From the NCBI GenBank assembly GCA_963717365.1, contig OY970327.1:991752-1055751 (forward strand): a stretch of DNA of 64,000 bases, written 5' to 3'. Below are positions 33,859 through 58,707 of the stretch, one piece after another. The position numbers and the translations under genes were made by a program. The number at the start of each line of letters is the position of its first letter. Within the stretch, counting starts at the first letter, position 1. The DNA is from Candidatus Saccharimonadia bacterium. GTDB taxonomy: Bacteria; Patescibacteriota; Saccharimonadia; Saccharimonadales; 2-12-FULL-41-12. The notes under the pieces are model-generated. The model saw nothing but the letters and a program-made list of their open reading frames with translations. It did no database searches and had not been told where the DNA came from.

Positions 33859-33944
33859 AAATACTCCATTTAAGTAAGCGGGTAATTAAAAAGCCCGCCG
33901 CTGGGCGATAGCCGGAGCTACCAATAACCGTTTCCAGTTACTAC

Positions 33945-33988
33945 AATCGCGAAAAAGTACCCGAACGACGAGCTGTTCTTTCGCGATT
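33945..33988. repeat. Perfect 10-bp inverted repeat in the recombinase upstream region
   Basis: AATCGCGAAA (33945-33954), 24 nt, then TTTCGCGATT (33979-33988). Confidence 0.8.
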
Positions 33989-34271
33989 GATTTGTTGACC
34001 ATGCCAATGCTTTCACAATGGTTTAGGCCTGAGCTGTTTAACAGCTTGGTTTGAATTATAAAGCACTTGAATTAAAATAAGGTAATACGGAGAAACGTAA
34101 AGACACTCTACTCGGGGAGAACAACTGTTTAGTAGCGGTTAAAGTACCCTAGCCATAGGAGAAAGGCTTAATCTCCCAAACGGAAGAACAGGCAATGCGT
34201 TTAGCACCTAAAGTATCCAACTAATCGCAAAAAGTTGTAGTTTAGGTACTTTTTGTTTTCCGGGGGCTTAG

Positions 34272-34472
34272 GTGTATACGAAATCACCCATTTCAGTTAA
34301 AGAGGCAAGACGGATTCTTGGAATCACTGGTAAGGGGTTATCAGACGATGCAATTAGGCAACTCATAGCACATATTGATGTATTAACAGATGTAGTAATT
34401 ACTCAATATAATGATTCCAAAAACCAGAGTTCTATTGATATTTTAAATGACGAAGCTCATACTAAAGAATAA
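34272..34472 (+). CDS. Small HTH-like protein (possible excisionase/RDF or regulator)
   Basis: 66 aa with a GTG start. SVKEARRILGITGKGLSDDAIRQLI resembles a helix-turn-helix. The stop lies 1 nt before the recombinase ATG. Confidence 0.4.
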   Translation: MYTKSPISVKEARRILGITGKGLSDDAIRQLIAHIDVLTDVVITQYNDSKNQSSIDILNDEAHTKE

Positions 34473-34473
34473 T

Positions 34474-36018
34474 ATGTTTAAAGCTGTAATATATACCCGC
34501 GTATCTACTGACGAACAAGCTAGGAATGGTCTAAGTCTAAAGGGTCAAGAGGACGCCACACGGGATTATTGTCTACGTGAAGGTATAGAGGTTGCTATGG
34601 TATTTTGTGATGCTGGAGAATCTGCAAAGACTGCTAATAGGCCACAATTAATAGCCTCAATGGCGTACTGTACCGAACATTACAAGGAAATTGACTTCTA
34701 TTTGGTGTGGAAGATGGATAGACTCGCTCGTATGGCCTACGACACAGCAGTAATTGATGCTAATTTACAAAAGCTTGGGATTCAGCTTCGTTCAGCTACG
34801 GAGCCAATTACAGATTCTCCTATCGGTTCTCTAACTAAAACCATGTTGGCAGGTTTCGCCCAGTTTGATAATGATGTACGCGCAGAACGTAGTAGTAGTG
34901 GGGTAAAACGGAGAATTGAAGAGGGTGGATGGCCTCATATGGCTCCGTTAGGCTACAGTAATTATACGGATAGTCTTAAGCGGCCAACACTTGTGCAGTC
35001 TAGCCAGGCACCACTTATTACAAGGTGGCTAAAGGAATACTTAAAAGGCGGCTATACGCAAAAGGCTTCAAATCAACTAGCTTGGGATATGGGGATACGC
35101 TCCAAACAGGGCACTCGATTGTCTAATCAGCAAACAATTAATATGCTTCGTAACCCAGTTTATGCAGGTCTGGTAAAATCTAAAATGATTGAATTTCCGG
35201 TTACAGGCCTACACACAGGGTTAATTAGTTACAAAGAACATGAAGCAATAATTAACAAATTGAATAAAAGAAAAAAACAGTTAACTGGGGTCAGTTCTTC
35301 GCAAGATTGGCCATTACGAGGAGGGTTTATAAAATGTGCGGAATGTAAAGAAAATATTACGGGAAGTTCGCCAAAGGGCCGAACAAAACACTACTCTATG
35401 TACCATTGCCCTAAATGCCGCACTAAAACGGTAGGCCATCGCGTGAGCGTATCAAAAGCAACCTTACATAACGAATTTGAAGCTTTATTAGCCTCTGTTA
35501 CGCCATCTGAGGCTGCATTAAAGCTATTTAAATCGCAAGTAATAAAGAAATGGCAGCTTTTAAATAGCGAGAAAAGATTACAGCAGCAGCAAATGCAACT
35601 TACGCTCGAAAAATTAAACCTTAGGAAACAAAAAGTAATTACACTTTTTGTTGATGGTAGCTTATCTTCGGAAGAAAAGGTGGAGCAATCAAATATTATC
35701 CAGTCAGAAATACTTAGAACCGAATTAAAATTAAATGAGGCAAAAGAAGCTGTAATAAGTTCAGATATTCTAATTGACTTCGGTATTAACATGATTCAAA
35801 ACGCTTCAAAACTATGGCGTATATCTAATGCATTAGAACGACAACGCCTACAATTAGCTATTTTTCCCGATGGACTTACATATAACTTTGTATCTGGGTT
35901 TGGAACCATTAAAACTAGTGAAATATATCAGTTAATTAGTCAATCGATATCAATAGATAATCAAAATTCAAGTATGGTGGGGGTGGCTGGAGTTGAACCA
36001 GCTACCAAGTGGTTATGA
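34474..36018 (+). CDS. Large serine recombinase (integrase type)
   Basis: AVIYTRVSTDEQARNGLSLKGQ (catalytic Ser), recombinase domain, Zn ribbon CAECKEN...YHCPKC and a coiled-coil tail. The last 44 nt overlap the tRNA-Met gene. Confidence 0.9.
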   Translation: MFKAVIYTRVSTDEQARNGLSLKGQEDATRDYCLREGIEVAMVFCDAGESAKTANRPQLIASMAYCTEHYKEIDFYLVWKMDRLARMAYDTAVIDANLQKLGIQLRSATEPITDSPIGSLTKTMLAGFAQFDNDVRAERSSSGVKRRIEEGGWPHMAPLGYSNYTDSLKRPTLVQSSQAPLITRWLKEYLKGGYTQKASNQLAWDMGIRSKQGTRLSNQQTINMLRNPVYAGLVKSKMIEFPVTGLHTGLISYKEHEAIINKLNKRKKQLTGVSSSQDWPLRGGFIKCAECKENITGSSPKGRTKHYSMYHCPKCRTKTVGHRVSVSKATLHNEFEALLASVTPSEAALKLFKSQVIKKWQLLNSEKRLQQQQMQLTLEKLNLRKQKVITLFVDGSLSSEEKVEQSNIIQSEILRTELKLNEAKEAVISSDILIDFGINMIQNASKLWRISNALERQRLQLAIFPDGLTYNFVSGFGTIKTSEIYQLISQSISIDNQNSSMVGVAGVEPATKWL

Positions 36019-36050
36019 GCCACCTGCTCTGACCGATGAGCTACACCCCC
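35975..36050 (-). tRNA. tRNA-Met (anticodon CAT; elongator Met versus Ile2 not distinguishable here), CCA encoded
   Basis: Hand-folded cloverleaf: acceptor GGGGGTG/CACCCCC, D arm GCTC-ATCGGTCA-GAGC, anticodon arm GGTGG-CTCATAA-CCACT, variable loop TGGTA, T arm GCTGG-TTCAACT-CCAGC, then A-CCA. Confidence 0.9.
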
Positions 36051-55386: not shown

Positions 55387-56082
55387 TTAAGGACACTCAA
55401 CTTCCATCAACTGCCGATTAGCACCCATAATAGTACGCCTTCTTGGAGCAGGACGTCTGCGTGCAATCAAGCTATCGCAGGAAGAAAACTGAAAGGTACC
55501 GTCCTGACTGCATCCAAAAATCCCTTTTCGGCTAGCTTGGTCAATAACTTCCCATCCATCTTCTTTGTAGATACGGAACAGCTCATTTGGCGAAAAAAGA
55601 GTCCGATGCGGCACTAAAGCTTGCTGATCAGCTGAAGCTACATACGACTCAATAATATTTAGACCATTTGGCTTAACACTGTTCTTGATTCCTGCCACAG
55701 TTCTTAAGCTCGCTGATCTGGCAATCATGTGCAGCGAGCTAGTTGCGATAGTCGCGTCAAAATTATTAAAGCCACTTACAAGTTCGGCCATATTCCCCTG
55801 TATAAATGAGTTTCGGAGTCCAGCAGCGCCTAGACTTGCGGCGATTCTTTGGCCTGTTTCAATGTATTCAGACTCAAGTTCAACTGACGTAACAGTATGC
55901 CCTTCTTGGGCTAAATAAAATCCATTGCGACCGTTATAAGCACCCAGGTCTAGGACTTGGGAGCAACGGGGAAGTAACGTCTCGGCAGTAATAACCAACG
56001 GCGTTGGCCGGATAAGCTCCGCTACAGCGGCGTATGGCGGACTTTCCCGCTCAAATGTTACCTCTTGACTGTCAATGCTCAT
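55387..56082 (-). CDS. Class I SAM-dependent methyltransferase
   Basis: VLDLGAYNGRNGFYLAQEGHTVTSVE (motif I) and ATIATSSLHM. Ends 3 nt upstream of the CFA-synthase-like start. Confidence 0.7.
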   Translation of the reverse strand: MSIDSQEVTFERESPPYAAVAELIRPTPLVITAETLLPRCSQVLDLGAYNGRNGFYLAQEGHTVTSVELESEYIETGQRIAASLGAAGLRNSFIQGNMAELVSGFNNFDATIATSSLHMIARSASLRTVAGIKNSVKPNGLNIIESYVASADQQALVPHRTLFSPNELFRIYKEDGWEVIDQASRKGIFGCSQDGTFQFSSCDSLIARRRPAPRRRTIMGANRQLMEVECP

Positions 56083-56178
56083 AGCTAAATTATTATACCG
56101 ACTATGTTTTTATGCAACAGACGACACCCTTTCCAGTATGAGTAAATTAAACAATAAATAATATTTTATATCAACTTG

Positions 56179-56187
56179 TGCCATAAT
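56179..56187 (+). promoter_or_regulatory. Extended -10 element (TGcCATAAT)
   Basis: tg-c-cataat at 56179-56187. No good -35. It would place a TSS about 30 nt upstream of the leader ORF. Confidence 0.4.
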
Positions 56188-56224
56188 GAACAATATAAAT
56201 CATGTAACGAAGGAGGATACAGCA

Positions 56225-56284
56225 ATGTTACATAATAAACGCGTTTGCACTTGGTCCGGCTTCGTTCAGCCGTTCTCAATCTAG
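56225..56284 (+). CDS. 19-aa leader ORF (MLHNKRVCTWSGFVQPFSI)
   Basis: Strong SD GAAGGAGGA (56209-56217) 7 nt upstream of the ATG. The stop abuts the terminator hairpin. Below the ORF-track cutoff. Confidence 0.4.
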   Translation: MLHNKRVCTWSGFVQPFSI

Positions 56285-56338
56285 CACCTGACACCAGATA
56301 GCTCGTAATGCTTTCTTGTTTGTCTCAGGTGTTTTTTT
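56285..56338 (+). terminator. Intrinsic-terminator-like hairpin + U7 between the leader ORF and the operon (candidate attenuator)
   Basis: CACCTGA (56285-56291) pairs with TCAGGTG (56325-56331), with extra flanking pairs, and is followed by TTTTTTT (56332-56338). Confidence 0.6.
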
Positions 56339-56372
56339 ATGTTCCAAAAAAACTTGATTGAGGAGAAAAGAC

Positions 56373-56981
56373 ATGACAATTGAAGAAAAATATACCCCGG
56401 ACATAACGTCGAGGGAATGCTTAGTAACCGTGCAAAAAGAGGGTGCTTTGCTGCTCAGGGAATTTGTTTCGGAAACCGAGCAGGTAAAGTTAACAACTGA
56501 AGTTCTGTCGCATCAACTAACACCTGTTGATCGGTCAAATCACACGATACCGGAACAATTCGAAGATATTGGTTGGGAGTTTCCTGACTGTCCACCCAGG
56601 GTACTAGCGCTTGGTAAACGAATAAGTTGTCTGGTCTGCCCAGAACTGCCGTTATGGGAAGCAAATCATGTGCGGGCGCAGTTATATTCCCCGGGAGAAG
56701 TAGGGATTGACTGGCACCGCGATTATAAGCGGGATTTAAGGCTGGTTGCCGTTGCATCATTCATCGGTGCTGCCCAGTTTGATATTGAACTGCGACAAGG
56801 TGAAGTGTCGTGGCAACTGAATCCGGGTGACTTAGTGTTGATGCGCGGAGCATTACTTACGGGTAAAAAAGACGACCGGCCACGGCACCGGGTATTTGCG
56901 CCGGAACAAGGTCAGCGACTTTCGGTTGCATACCGTCACGTAACAAGCGAAGTACCAGAATTGGAGCCCCAACATGGATAA
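56373..56981 (+). CDS. AlkB-like Fe(II)/2-oxoglutarate dioxygenase
   Basis: HxD in IDWHRDY, distal His in RPRHRV, and RLSVAYR resembling the RxSxTxR 2OG-binding motif. GAGGAG SD before ATG 56373 (the track start 56358 is TTG). Confidence 0.65.
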   Translation: MTIEEKYTPDITSRECLVTVQKEGALLLREFVSETEQVKLTTEVLSHQLTPVDRSNHTIPEQFEDIGWEFPDCPPRVLALGKRISCLVCPELPLWEANHVRAQLYSPGEVGIDWHRDYKRDLRLVAVASFIGAAQFDIELRQGEVSWQLNPGDLVLMRGALLTGKKDDRPRHRVFAPEQGQRLSVAYRHVTSEVPELEPQHG

Positions 56982-57519
56982 GATTAAAAAAAACGTTGCT
57001 GCGATTTTGTCTGGAATCGATCCAGAGCCAACCCGGGAAGGCTTACAAAGAACTCCGGAACGGTATGCCCAATTCCTGAAAGATTTTACGTCACCACCCG
57101 AATTTTCACCGACGCTGTTTGCAGGCGAAGGCTACGACGAAATGGTGGTACAGGACAATATAACGTTTTACAGTTTGTGCGAACACCATCTATTGCCATT
57201 TTTTGGTACCGGCACAATTGCATATATTCCAGACCAAGAGATTATTGGTCTGTCAAAACTTGCCCGGATGTTGGAGCATTTTAGCCGCCGTCTGCAGAAC
57301 CAAGAACGTATTACTTCCCAAGTAGCTGATTGTTTGAACGAAGTTGCTTCTCCAAAAGGTGTCGGCGTAATTTTAACGGCCCGGCATCTATGCATGGAAA
57401 TGCGCGGTGTAACTAAGCCGGGCGCATGCACGACAACTTCAACGGTGCGCGGCATATTTAAAACCAACCCCCAAACCCGGGGCGAATTTCTAAATCTTAC
57501 ACAAGGGAGATCAAGATGA
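56974..57519 (+). CDS. folE: GTP cyclohydrolase I (type 1)
   Basis: LQRTPERYAQ, YSLCEHHLLPFFG, IGLSKLARMLEHFSRRLQNQERIT and HLCMEMRGV. Overlaps the upstream gene by 8 nt. Confidence 0.9.
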   Translation: MDKIKKNVAAILSGIDPEPTREGLQRTPERYAQFLKDFTSPPEFSPTLFAGEGYDEMVVQDNITFYSLCEHHLLPFFGTGTIAYIPDQEIIGLSKLARMLEHFSRRLQNQERITSQVADCLNEVASPKGVGVILTARHLCMEMRGVTKPGACTTTSTVRGIFKTNPQTRGEFLNLTQGRSR

Positions 57520-58271
57520 CAAAACTAGTCGGCATTCTCAATATCACGCCGGATAGTTTTTCCGATGGCGGTGACTGGAATAATCCAGAACAGGCTGCAG
57601 CTCGGGTTGATCAGTTGTTCTTAGAAGGCGCCGATATAGTAGATATTGGCGCCGAATCAACTCGCCCAGGCGCCCAGGAAGTTTCTATAGAGGATGAATG
57701 GGCAAGACTTAATCCATTACTGAAGAAGCTTAGAAAGACACATGATCCAGCTCGTTTTTCAATTGATACCCGGCACGGCGAAATTGCTCAGCGCGTTGTA
57801 CATACCTGGTCATCTAATATTTTGATTAATGATGTTACGGGGCTCAGTGATCGGCGCATGATAGAGGTCGTGTCACTAAACGGTCTCCGAGTTGTGCTTA
57901 GTCATTTGCCGTTTGTCGCAAGTGGTAGCCTGGCTCGGGCGCACCAAGAAAAAATGACAAGCCAGGAAGCAGTCTATAACGAACTAATGTTGCAGTACGA
58001 GAAATTGCATAAATGGGGAGTTGATCAAGATAAACTCATTCTGGACCCCGGTATCGGTTTTGGAAAGTCGCCAGAACTTAATCAAGAGTTAATACATTTT
58101 GGCTCCATGACTGAATTGCCAGTAATGATTGGCTATTCTAGAAAACGATTTTTAGGCGAGCGCCGGTTTGATCCGGATTTTAATGTTAGCCTTGGACGGC
58201 TAGCTATAGCTTCTGGAGCTAGTTATTTACGAGTACATGACGTGGCAGCGCATCATGAATTACTTAATTGA
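57516..58271 (+). CDS. folP: Dihydropteroate synthase
   Basis: GILNITPDSFSDGG, DIGAESTRPG, SIDT, INDV, DPGIGFGK and RVHDV. ATGA overlap with folE. Confidence 0.9.
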   Translation: MTKLVGILNITPDSFSDGGDWNNPEQAAARVDQLFLEGADIVDIGAESTRPGAQEVSIEDEWARLNPLLKKLRKTHDPARFSIDTRHGEIAQRVVHTWSSNILINDVTGLSDRRMIEVVSLNGLRVVLSHLPFVASGSLARAHQEKMTSQEAVYNELMLQYEKLHKWGVDQDKLILDPGIGFGKSPELNQELIHFGSMTELPVMIGYSRKRFLGERRFDPDFNVSLGRLAIASGASYLRVHDVAAHHELLN

Positions 58272-58311: not shown

Positions 58312-58707
58312 ATGAACAATTACGAAAATTTATTTATCGTACAAACCTCAACAATACCGGATGCAGGAGTCGGTTGTTTCGCCATGTCTCATATTGATGA
58401 TAGTGTAAGACTGAATAGCCAACCAGCCGAAGGCACCACCAGGGTACTGGCTGAAGAGGAAATTCCTGATGCCTACCTCAAATACTGCCCACTGCTCGAA
58501 TCGGGTCTCTATCTAGCTCCTGCAAATTTTACGGTGATGGCAGTATTTTGGTATATTAATCATGCCAAGCGTCCCAATACCAAAGTCATAGAAGGAAAAA
58601 TTTACGCGGCGCGCGACCTAGAGCCTGAAGAAGAACTCACTATGTACTACCCAGATTTGTTAACACATCCAAAAAATAAACTGTGGCTTCGGCCGGAACA
58701 TGTATAG
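58312..58707 (+). CDS. SET-domain protein (putative lysine methyltransferase)
   Basis: 131 aa. IPDAGVGCFA (GxG-FA), YINHAKRPN (NHSxxPN-like) and EEELTMYY (ELxxDY-like). Confidence 0.65.
   Translation: MNNYENLFIVQTSTIPDAGVGCFAMSHIDDSVRLNSQPAEGTTRVLAEEEIPDAYLKYCPLLESGLYLAPANFTVMAVFWYINHAKRPNTKVIEGKIYAARDLEPEEELTMYYPDLLTHPKNKLWLRPEHV

Follow-up and report, generated by a model that had tools for sequence, protein, structure and literature searches.

A conserved leader peptide before folate genes in Saccharimonadia: a candidate arrest-type reporter of one-carbon status

Introduction

This article describes a 19-codon open reading frame (ORF) at the head of a folate operon in a 64,000-nucleotide stretch of DNA from Candidatus Saccharimonadia bacterium (assembly GCA_963717365.1, contig OY970327.1, positions 991,752 to 1,055,751 of the forward strand), referred to here as the window. 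The ORF lies between a Shine-Dalgarno sequence (SD) and an intrinsic terminator, upstream of genes for an AlkB-like oxygenase, the GTP cyclohydrolase I FolE and the dihydropteroate synthase (DHPS) FolP, and it probably encodes a translated regulatory leader peptide of the arrest type that reports one-carbon status. Its first 14 residues are conserved as a peptide in related bacteria, mostly before folate or pterin genes, and the RNA following codon 14 is complementary to downstream terminator or SD sequences at positions kept relative to that codon. Riboswitch control of folate genes is known from other phyla (tetrahydrofolate, THF, classes THF-I and THF-II); to our knowledge, and in the literature searched, control of a bacterial vitamin or cofactor pathway by a leader or arrest peptide has not been described.

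The leader region

A reading of this region made from the sequence alone had proposed a leader ORF and terminator in front of an AlkB-like/folE/folP/SET operon, as a candidate attenuator or riboswitch. All of the elements that it named (extended -10, SD, leader ORF, inverted repeat, U7, GAGGAG and the ATG at 56373) were recovered at their positions, and its proposal of a cis-regulatory leader with a translated small ORF is supported. The features of the region, all on the + strand, are as follows; the assignments draw on the sequence itself (promoter box), the family motif (codons 1-14), comparison of tails across the family (codons 15-19) and duplex and fold calculations (SD region of the first gene).

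56179-56187, + strand: putative extended -10 promoter element, TGcCATAAT
56209-56217, + strand: SD of the leader ORF, GAAGGAGGA, spacer of 7 nt to the ATG at 56225
56225-56266, + strand: conserved sensor part, MLHNKRVCTWSGFV, leader codons 1-14
56267-56284, + strand: variable tail QPFSI and stop codon TAG of the leader ORF
56273-56281, + strand: anti-SD, TTCTCAATC, at +9 to +17 from the first base of codon 14
56284-56338, + strand: intrinsic terminator, stem 56284-56291/56325-56332 with irregular upper part, U7 at 56332-56338
56346-56352, + strand: A7 run, which may pair with the U7 tract in read-through RNA; the predicted product is a small hairpin enclosed by the anti-SD/SD helix
56356-56365, + strand: SD region of the first operon gene, GATTGAGGAG, partner of the anti-SD

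The leader ORF opens at ATG 56225, encodes the peptide MLHNKRVCTWSGFVQPFSI and closes with TAG at 56282-56284. The TGcCATAAT box was not picked up by a two-hexamer promoter scan of the window; orthologous loci carry AT-rich -10-like boxes at comparable distances. The inverted repeat CACCTGA...TCAGGTG occupies 56285-56331 and is followed by T7 at 56332-56338. The hairpin 56283-56333 folds with -16.9 kcal/mol (z = -3.14), which none of 200 dinucleotide shuffles equaled, and it has the properties of an intrinsic terminator: a stable GC-containing stem, U7 abutting it, and a position kept among relatives with differing stem sequences. A terminator scan overlooked it because the loop limit of the scan was 3-8 nt. 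The U7 tract (56332-38) and the A7 run (56346-52) form an inverted repeat, and most orthologous loci also show a run of A5-A7 just 5' of the SD. GAGGAG lies at 56360-56365 and the first operon gene starts at ATG 56373, only 34 nt after the U-tract; AT-rich -10-like hexamers occur between the terminator and this gene, for example TATGTT at 56338-43.

The hairpin does not belong to an unrelated upstream transcript. The upstream neighbor, a TehB-like methyltransferase gene (55387-56082), is divergent (minus strand), which excludes the hairpin as its terminator, and in relatives the upstream rpoC has its own terminator before the leader promoter. The small hairpin CGGCT/AGCCG (56257-56272), also reported within the leader by the sequence-only reading, does exist in the window and is not conserved in relatives; it stems from the Gly12 and Pro16 codons, is missing where residue 12 is Ser, and was given no weight.

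Conservation of the leader peptide

The first operon gene has a small family of relatives, every one of which comes from metagenome-assembled genomes (MAGs) of Candidatus Saccharibacteria. Operon loci (numbered with the prefix L) were retrieved through the AlkB-like protein alone, without a peptide pattern, and eight of the ten genome loci obtained in this way have a small ORF at the equivalent site; the more distant orthologues L081 and L082 (49-50% identity) carry it as well. These operon-derived leaders encode M-[LIV]-[HQ]-[NS]-K-[RH]-x-x-T-W-S-[SG]-F-[VI], and pairwise comparison of the 11 pattern-independent leaders gives 149, 67 and 311 nucleotide differences at codon positions 1, 2 and 3. 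Metagenome contigs were then scanned with a codon-degenerate pattern, which returned 70 loci; about 55 of them have the ORF, 14-26 codons long, with the ATG exactly two codons before [HQ]3. The resulting family, with 51 distinct sequences, shares the motif M-x-[HQ]-N-K-[HR]-x-x-T-W-S-[GS]-F-[VIT], followed by a variable tail.

Selection acts on the amino-acid and not on the nucleotide sequence, as expected of an arrest peptide. At the positions left free by the pattern, entropy is 1.50, 0.61 and 1.69 bits at codon positions 1, 2 and 3. Residue 2 is hydrophobic throughout, yet 14 different codons are used for it; Arg8 is drawn from both CGN and AGR, the Leu codon families are switched likewise, and position 12 alternates only between Gly (GGN) and Ser (AGY). 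Past residue 14 the tails comprise 0-13 codons and are unrelated across the family. In a sister clade (L004-6) codon 15 is a stop in place of the Gln of the others (alignment A2), and the peptide remains under purifying selection. The conservation in other genomes, at the peptide level and upstream of orthologous operons, is the main reason for regarding the leader as more than a chance feature.

Translation of the ORF seems to begin in two ways. An SD is present in 25 of 53 family members; another 20 have no SD and show a TAnnnT box 5-10 nt before the ATG, preceded in three of them by a perfect TTGACA 17-18 nt upstream. The closeness of the box to the ATG, together with these TTGACA elements, suggests leaderless mRNAs that start at the leader ORF. 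Such leaders make up about 40% and include L022, L026, L029, L041, L056 and L072 (Saccharimonadales).

The named members of the clusters are loci in Candidatus Saccharimonadales and one FolC locus in Candidatus Magasanikbacteria; judged from these sequences, the family occurs in the Patescibacteria (candidate phyla radiation, CPR), in Saccharimonadales and at least one Magasanikbacteria locus. It is previously undescribed, with no Rfam, Pfam or NCBIfam family and no paper found in the literature searched. Five family members had no match in Pfam and NCBIfam at E <= 10, so that no membership in a described arrest-peptide family was detected, and a literature search retrieved no paper on the peptide or on a folate leader peptide, the peptide strings giving chance matches only. 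Megablast gave no match that would indicate a phage origin.

Genes behind the leader

Gene context was counted at loci with at least 300 nt of downstream sequence, and in all 59 an ORF on the same strand starts within 200 nt of the leader. Most of these partners are folate or pterin genes, with a few unknown proteins. The AlkB-like oxygenase follows in 22 loci, with FolE and DHPS next in the subtype of the window. A CofE-like ligase is another partner, named 'dihydrofolate synthase/folylpolyglutamate synthase' or 'putative folate metabolism gamma-glutamate ligase' in the sources; further ones are a RibD_C/DHFR-family protein, the Vut_1 transporter, FolC, FolB and FolE alone. When the leader was sought upstream of FolC2-like genes on three large Saccharimonadales contigs, only a divergent copy was found (MLLNKHTTTWSGFV..., L087), which precedes Vut_1 and the ligase.

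In the Magasanikbacteria-like locus L015 (1635-3514) the leader ATG (3458) stands 14 nt past the end of a tRNA (3443) that follows a 16S rRNA gene, which places the leader-FolC unit immediately downstream of, or within, an rRNA operon. A nucleoside 2-deoxyribosyltransferase-like protein lies directly behind the leader at L036:1209-1763 (recognized by eye; no NCBIfam hit), and another lies next to a SAM-controlled operon at L084:5755-6057 (weak match to Pfam PF15891); this hints at deoxynucleoside salvage in the same one-carbon regulon.

RNA elements after codon 14

In the window the anti-SD forms a duplex of -11.4 kcal/mol with 56352-56365, and the helix 56273-81/56356-64 appears in both the minimum free energy (MFE) and the centroid fold of 56264-56378, where it encloses the terminator hairpin and the U-run/A-run hairpin. 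The first six of the nine anti-SD nucleotides fall inside the footprint of a ribosome with codon 14 in the P site. The window belongs to a subtype with L001-3, L007, L034, L081 and L082, in which the ORF comprises 19-20 codons, its stop abuts a long terminator hairpin on the 5' arm side and the hairpin starts 18-24 nt past codon 14; apart from its stop at codon 15, the sister clade L004-6 has the identical layout. In ten of ten loci of both subtypes (L034, a near-duplicate of L002, was left out), the 9-12 nt that follow codon 15 are complementary to the AlkB-like SD region across the terminator. Cognate anti-SD/SD pairs average -11.3 kcal/mol and non-cognate ones -7.7 kcal/mol (permutation p = 0.00015, eight non-redundant loci), and the two strands covary: TTCTCAATC/GATTGAGGA in the window, TTGCTCTCT/GGAGAGCAA in L002, CCTGTC/GACAGG in L007, CGTCTC/GAGACG in L081, GTTTCTCTTTT/AAAAGGAGAAAC in L005 and TTCTTTCAT/ATGAAGGAG in L006. 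Within the subtype of the window, 5-8 nt separate the first base of codon 14 from the start of the complementarity.

The terminator of this operon type is conserved in place and structure. A hairpin with a T-run lies at +18 to +24 from codon 14 in ten of ten other loci; the stems differ, with compensatory changes in four of five aligned pairs. L001-3 and L082 have a second local hairpin on the same U-run. At L009 (3911-4000) the leader is kept, and both the U-run terminator and folE/folP are absent; the leader stop is spanned there by a perfect 10-bp AT hairpin (TATATTTTGT/ACAAAATATA), just upstream of the AlkB-like SD.

Across the family, leaders were sorted by what follows codon 14, and the ribosome footprint was simulated by masking in MFE-based folds. 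In the window the terminator can be masked only from P-site codons 17-19 and not from codon 14. In a second AlkB-like group the 5' arm of the terminator coincides with codons 15-17 and the 3' arm follows the stop; here, in seven of nine loci, the simulated ribosome removes the terminator once it has reached P-site codon 12-14. The trp-like loci have a canonical terminator (often CTGCCTC-loop-GAGGCAG-T6) about 25 nt past the stop, and the end of the ORF is complementary to its loop and inner arms, in a sequence that differs from locus to locus (tail/terminator pairs CTCCGGGA/TCCCGGAG, TTTCGAGAG/CTCTCGAAG, CAGAGAG/CTCTCTG and CCTCGG/CCGAGG). These tails pair with their own terminator at -19.3 and with those of other loci at -13.6 kcal/mol (p < 5e-5), and in 12 of 22 loci the simulated ribosome abolishes the terminator only at P-site codons 12-16. 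The Vut_1 loci have no terminator; their anti-SD lies in the tail, 3-21 nt past codon 14, and is complementary to the SD of the transporter gene. Measured from the first base of codon 14, the actuator begins at a distance of 3-8 nt in both the anti-SD and the terminator-arm architectures.

Every architecture, then, places one of three elements (a terminator 5' arm, an anti-antiterminator or an anti-SD) in the approximately 15 nt that follow codon 14, and masking that element would switch the genes on. An element that would control expression thus lies within or next to the ribosome footprint at the candidate arrest codon, the arrangement typical of arrest peptides.

In L032, L039, L060 and L070 the sequence of the terminator 5' arm is repeated just past the T-run (for example GGCGCTACTCCAC), and a CTCCA that overlaps this copy could base-pair with the downstream SD. 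A second layer of control may exist here, in which an unused terminator 3' arm sequesters the anti-SD.

Other pairings were considered and abandoned. The MFE fold pairs the leader SD with codons 12-14 in the window and L004 only, and not in L005, L006 or L009; long duplexes of the leader 5' region with the terminator were inconsistent and over-fitted; and pairing of the conserved ACNTGG codons with the terminator 3' arm occurs in only 7 of 11 loci, with a product that is still terminator-like.

Riboswitch searches and exchange with SAM-I

The sequence-only reading had suggested a folate-type riboswitch and a comparison with the THF families of Rfam. Neither the window nor 20 related leaders matched the THF-I (RF01831) or THF-II (folE motif) covariance models. 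At the gathering score, Rfam 15 (cmscan) reported only LOOT and a tRNA in the whole window; at E <= 10 the 371 nt of 56050-56420 gave three weak, unrelated, chance-level matches, none to THF, SAM, preQ1 or ZTP families, and the 20 related leaders matched nothing in Rfam. The location 5' of folate genes is that of THF-I and THF-II; it is common to many types of regulators and does not define membership. The leader as a whole folds no better than shuffled sequences (z = -1.33), and its conservation has codon periodicity, which together with the failure to match a THF model at E <= 10 speaks against the riboswitch proposal.

In three relatives, L008, L010 and L084, the AlkB-like/folE/folP operon is preceded by an S-adenosylmethionine (SAM) riboswitch of class SAM-I (RF00162) with a terminator whose 3' arm contains the SD; the window has no SAM-I match. 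All three scores exceed the cut-off of the covariance model (44.4 bits).

L008:3819-3928: SAM-I riboswitch, RF00162, 48.7 bits
L010:2976-3086: SAM-I riboswitch, RF00162, 47.6 bits
L084:2843-2952: SAM-I riboswitch, RF00162, 48.7 bits

The AlkB-like proteins of these loci are 58-61% identical to that of the window and thus closer to it than those of the leader-bearing L081 and L082, which means that the two regulators replaced each other within one operon lineage. This exchange marks the site as a regulatory slot and links the leader with one-carbon status. It is in itself unusual for GTP cyclohydrolase I and DHPS to be under SAM control.

Proposed mechanism

The reading favored here, a translated leader peptide of the arrest type, could operate in the window as follows. 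With its first 13-14 residues in the exit tunnel, and under a condition linked to one-carbon (folate/SAM) status, the ribosome would be held with codon 13-15 in the P site. It would cover about 15 nt downstream, including the first 6 of the 9 nt of the anti-SD (56273-56281), which, if left free, would pair with the AlkB-like SD region (56356-56364) around the terminator hairpin. Arrest would then free the SD and turn on translation of the AlkB-like gene, with FolE and FolP following by translational coupling; without arrest the ribosome would terminate at UAG and leave, and the SD would be sequestered. The hairpin with U7 would be a genuine intrinsic terminator nested in the anti-SD/SD helix, acting like a damper in the subtype of the window, perhaps constitutively, and would be affected only by a ribosome on codons 17-19 or on the stop codon. 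In other members a ribosome in the same position would mask a terminator 5' arm, the trp-like region 1 or the anti-SD of the transporter gene.

The strong amino-acid conservation of the first 14 residues fits the preference of the sequence-only reading for an arrest peptide over a codon-run attenuator. The sister clade with its stop at codon 15 is informative on the state that matters: as it keeps the peptide, the relevant ribosome stands at codon 14 and translation past residue 14 is dispensable, and a ribosome that blocks the terminator from the stop codon is too simple a picture. The inverse scheme, with the operon on when a ribosome at the stop codon covers the terminator and off upon arrest, was rejected since it conflicts with this clade and with all other architectures. 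If arrest means on and SAM turns the operon off in relatives, arrest should prevail when one-carbon units are scarce. This would imply one of three alternatives: an intrinsic arrest relieved by a pathway product (folate or SAM), an inducer that accumulates during shortage, or sensing of the translation machinery itself, for instance through an unformylated N-terminus or a hypomodified tRNA. Queuosine-dependent decoding of His/Asn codons was discarded, given that positions 3 and 6 vary to Gln and Arg.

A more specific version, that the 14-residue nascent peptide is itself the one-carbon sensor, responding to a folate- or SAM-related metabolite in the exit tunnel or to the formylation state of the N-terminal Met, is a tentative proposal and rather doubtful at present; the invariant distance from the N-terminus to T-W-S-G-F would fit a readout of the N-formyl group (10-formyl-THF).

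Several points weigh against the arrest model. Computation shows the conservation, the link with folate genes and the RNA complementarities with their positions; the arrest, with its sign, signal dependence and effector, is inferred, the arrest itself from amino-acid conservation and geometry only. We know of no small-molecule arrest peptide that acts on scarcity, as an arrest at low folate or SAM would. The terminator 5' arm of the window begins 19 nt after codon 14, beyond the reach of the arrested ribosome; with the terminator unmasked arrest would not relieve termination, which leaves a conserved terminator within the 'on' state unexplained. The assumed footprint, with its edge near +14, covers only part of the anti-SD itself (+9 to +17). 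Elsewhere in the family, the expected masking profile appears in only about half of the trp-like loci (in MFE-based folds), and the anti-SD of the Vut_1 loci has no significant cognate advantage (p = 0.125), because SDs are generic. The codon-degenerate pattern biases the metagenome set towards the motif, leaving only the 11 leaders mentioned above as pattern-independent, and some Saccharimonadales homologues of the regulated genes have no leader (L086, L088).

Alternative explanations

A classical attenuator that senses supply, without any sensing in the tunnel, would slow the ribosome at codons whose charged or modified tRNA becomes limiting when one-carbon units are scarce; the candidates are Ser/Gly via serine hydroxymethyltransferase and the SAM-dependent ms2i6A37 modification of tRNAs reading UGG, UCN and UUY. 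The trp-like four-segment architecture of many members is the design of an amino-acid attenuator, the block C/R8-T-W-S-G/S-F is rich in UNN codons, the restriction of position 12 to GGN or AGY agrees with a Ser/Gly readout, and the sign is sensible, since expression when one-carbon units are low matches the SAM-I off-switch of the relatives. The motif, however, is fixed and heterogeneous, with no single-codon run and no residue repeated more than twice. Amino-acid conservation is as strong in residues 2-8, well before the putative hungry codons, as in the rest, whereas leader peptides of classical attenuators are not conserved outside their regulatory codons. A ribosome stalled with Ser11/Gly12 in its A site and codon 10-11 in its P site would moreover miss the actuator elements, and supply sensing of this kind is considered unlikely. 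Constitutive coupling, in which leader translation opens the anti-SD helix or terminator while the peptide senses nothing and is kept for efficient translation or incidental reasons, appears less likely still: any translated ORF could serve such a geometry, with the anti-SD in the tail and a terminator arm at the stop, but 10 of 14 residues are near-invariant over two CPR lineages and five RNA output designs while the tails drift, and the actuator is always placed relative to codon 14 and not to the stop codon.

An independent small-protein gene is about as improbable. Its 14-residue product would act in trans, as the leader peptide peTrpL does, for example by regulating folate enzymes or partnering with them, and the operon would be expressed by read-through or from its own promoter, for which the AT-rich -10-like hexamers after the terminator could serve; the strong SD, the good terminator straight after the ORF, the amino-acid-level conservation and the minimal 14-mer kept by the codon-15-stop clade all accord with such a gene. 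Against it, the ORF was seen only directly 5' of a co-oriented gene (59/59 loci), and a trans-acting product would need no copy before each unit, the partners being mostly folate-related and varying by locus; the ORF tails covary with downstream terminators or SD regions; many members have an anti-SD only, without any terminator; and relatives have a riboswitch at the identical position, with only 34 nt from U-tract to start codon in the window. The least probable explanation, and a very improbable one, is an RNA-only element, be it a THF or other riboswitch or a protein-binding leader, with an incidental ORF. The position is typical of riboswitches, SAM-I occupies it in relatives, and folate riboswitches exist in other phyla; yet the Rfam searches of the window and 20 members and the weak folding of the whole leader gave no sign of one, and the conserved block of 42 nt has a three-base period and no conserved helix, its start codon is invariant and it comes with an SD or a leaderless promoter.

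Comparison with known systems

The arrest model resembles several known systems without coinciding with any of them. As in the erm/cat leaders (ErmCL, ErmBL, CatA86 leader), a short ORF lies near the 5' end and a stalled ribosome would mask RNA so that an SD is freed; stalling there depends on the nascent chain after about 5-14 residues, and at certain erm genes SD sequestration is joined by a terminator. The signal for those leaders is an antibiotic bound to the ribosome and their targets are resistance genes, whereas the present leader is unrelated in sequence and precedes folate/pterin genes, and in the window the anti-SD would be masked directly and not through a relay of segments 1-2-3-4. 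With TnaC and SpeFL it shares the importance of peptide sequence over codon content and a putative arrest that turns on downstream metabolic genes; arrest in these systems takes place at the stop codon, with which the codon-15-stop clade may be compared, or during elongation. TnaC and SpeFL have 24-34 residues, sense Trp or ornithine and block Rho; here 14 residues suffice, the outputs are intrinsic terminators or anti-SD elements, and sequence similarity is lacking. If arrest means on, the present leader would respond to lack of a pathway product, unlike TnaC and SpeFL, which respond to a substrate.

Many members are laid out like the trp, his and phe attenuators, with region 1 under the paused ribosome, an antiterminator over the ORF end and a U-run terminator; in the window the ORF end abuts the terminator arm, and relatives have the full set of 1:2, 2:3 and 3:4 pairings. 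They differ in lacking any run or enrichment of regulatory amino-acid codons, in the conservation of the peptide itself and in having a cofactor pathway as regulon. THF-I and THF-II likewise lie 5' of a regulon with folE, folP, folC and a folate transporter; no similarity to them was detectable, and the conserved part here is coding. SAM-I, at the identical position before the orthologous operon of L008, L010 and L084, is an RNA aptamer that turns expression off on binding SAM. The nascent MTO1 peptide of plant CGS1 undergoes SAM-induced arrest at ...AAKWS94, with a Trp-Ser pair at the arrest point. The invariant T-W-S of a leader interchangeable with a SAM riboswitch recalls this, as a lead and not a test; the CGS1 motif is eukaryotic, lies inside a long protein and represses by arrest, whereas here conservation runs 2-3 residues past W-S.

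The regulated operon and other features of the window

56373-56981, + strand: AlkB-like 2-oxoglutarate-Fe(II) oxygenase gene (weak Pfam hit)
56974-57519, + strand: FolE gene (NCBIfam equivalog, 190.8 bits)
57516-58271, + strand: DHPS/FolP gene (equivalog, 213.7 bits)
58312-58707, + strand: SET-domain protein gene, possible last gene of the unit (weak Pfam SET hit)

The assignment of the operon as AlkB-like/folE/folP/SET holds in Pfam and NCBIfam searches, FolE and DHPS both scoring above their equivalog cut-offs and the AlkB-like and SET matches being weak. The stop and start codons of the first three genes overlap, which suggests translational coupling, and in relatives the AlkB-like oxygenase, folE and folP likewise follow the leader or a SAM-I riboswitch; the SET gene was not found after folP in related loci, so its membership is uncertain. 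The AlkB-like oxygenase, with an invariant HxD...H triad, is the commonest gene behind the leader and sometimes the sole one (window and 22 related loci). It heads folE-folP operons without folB and folK and may catalyze a missing or alternative step of the pterin/folate pathway.

The LOOT RNA (RF03000) lies at 33907-34029 on the minus strand of the window (77.8 bits), and a truncated second copy occurs at L008:1-94 (49.8 bits), in a related Saccharimonadia MAG, so that the motif is present in Saccharibacteria genomes. The tRNA, at 35978-36050 (minus strand), overlaps the 3' end of a predicted 523-codon ORF at 34447-36018 (plus strand), whose end or reality is thus questionable.

Concluding remarks

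In CPR bacteria, with their reduced genomes, one short peptide stands before nearly every step of folate synthesis and salvage. If confirmed, the leader would represent a compact, portable sensor of one-carbon status and would add to the ribosomal exit tunnel a new class of ligand or a new principle of sensing. Should the peptide also prove to be the direct sensor, it would be the first arrest peptide of a cofactor pathway, interchangeable with SAM-I and wired to at least five RNA output modules in the CPR. Confirmation would further provide a regulon-based handle on gene function in these organisms, for instance on that of the AlkB-like oxygenase.

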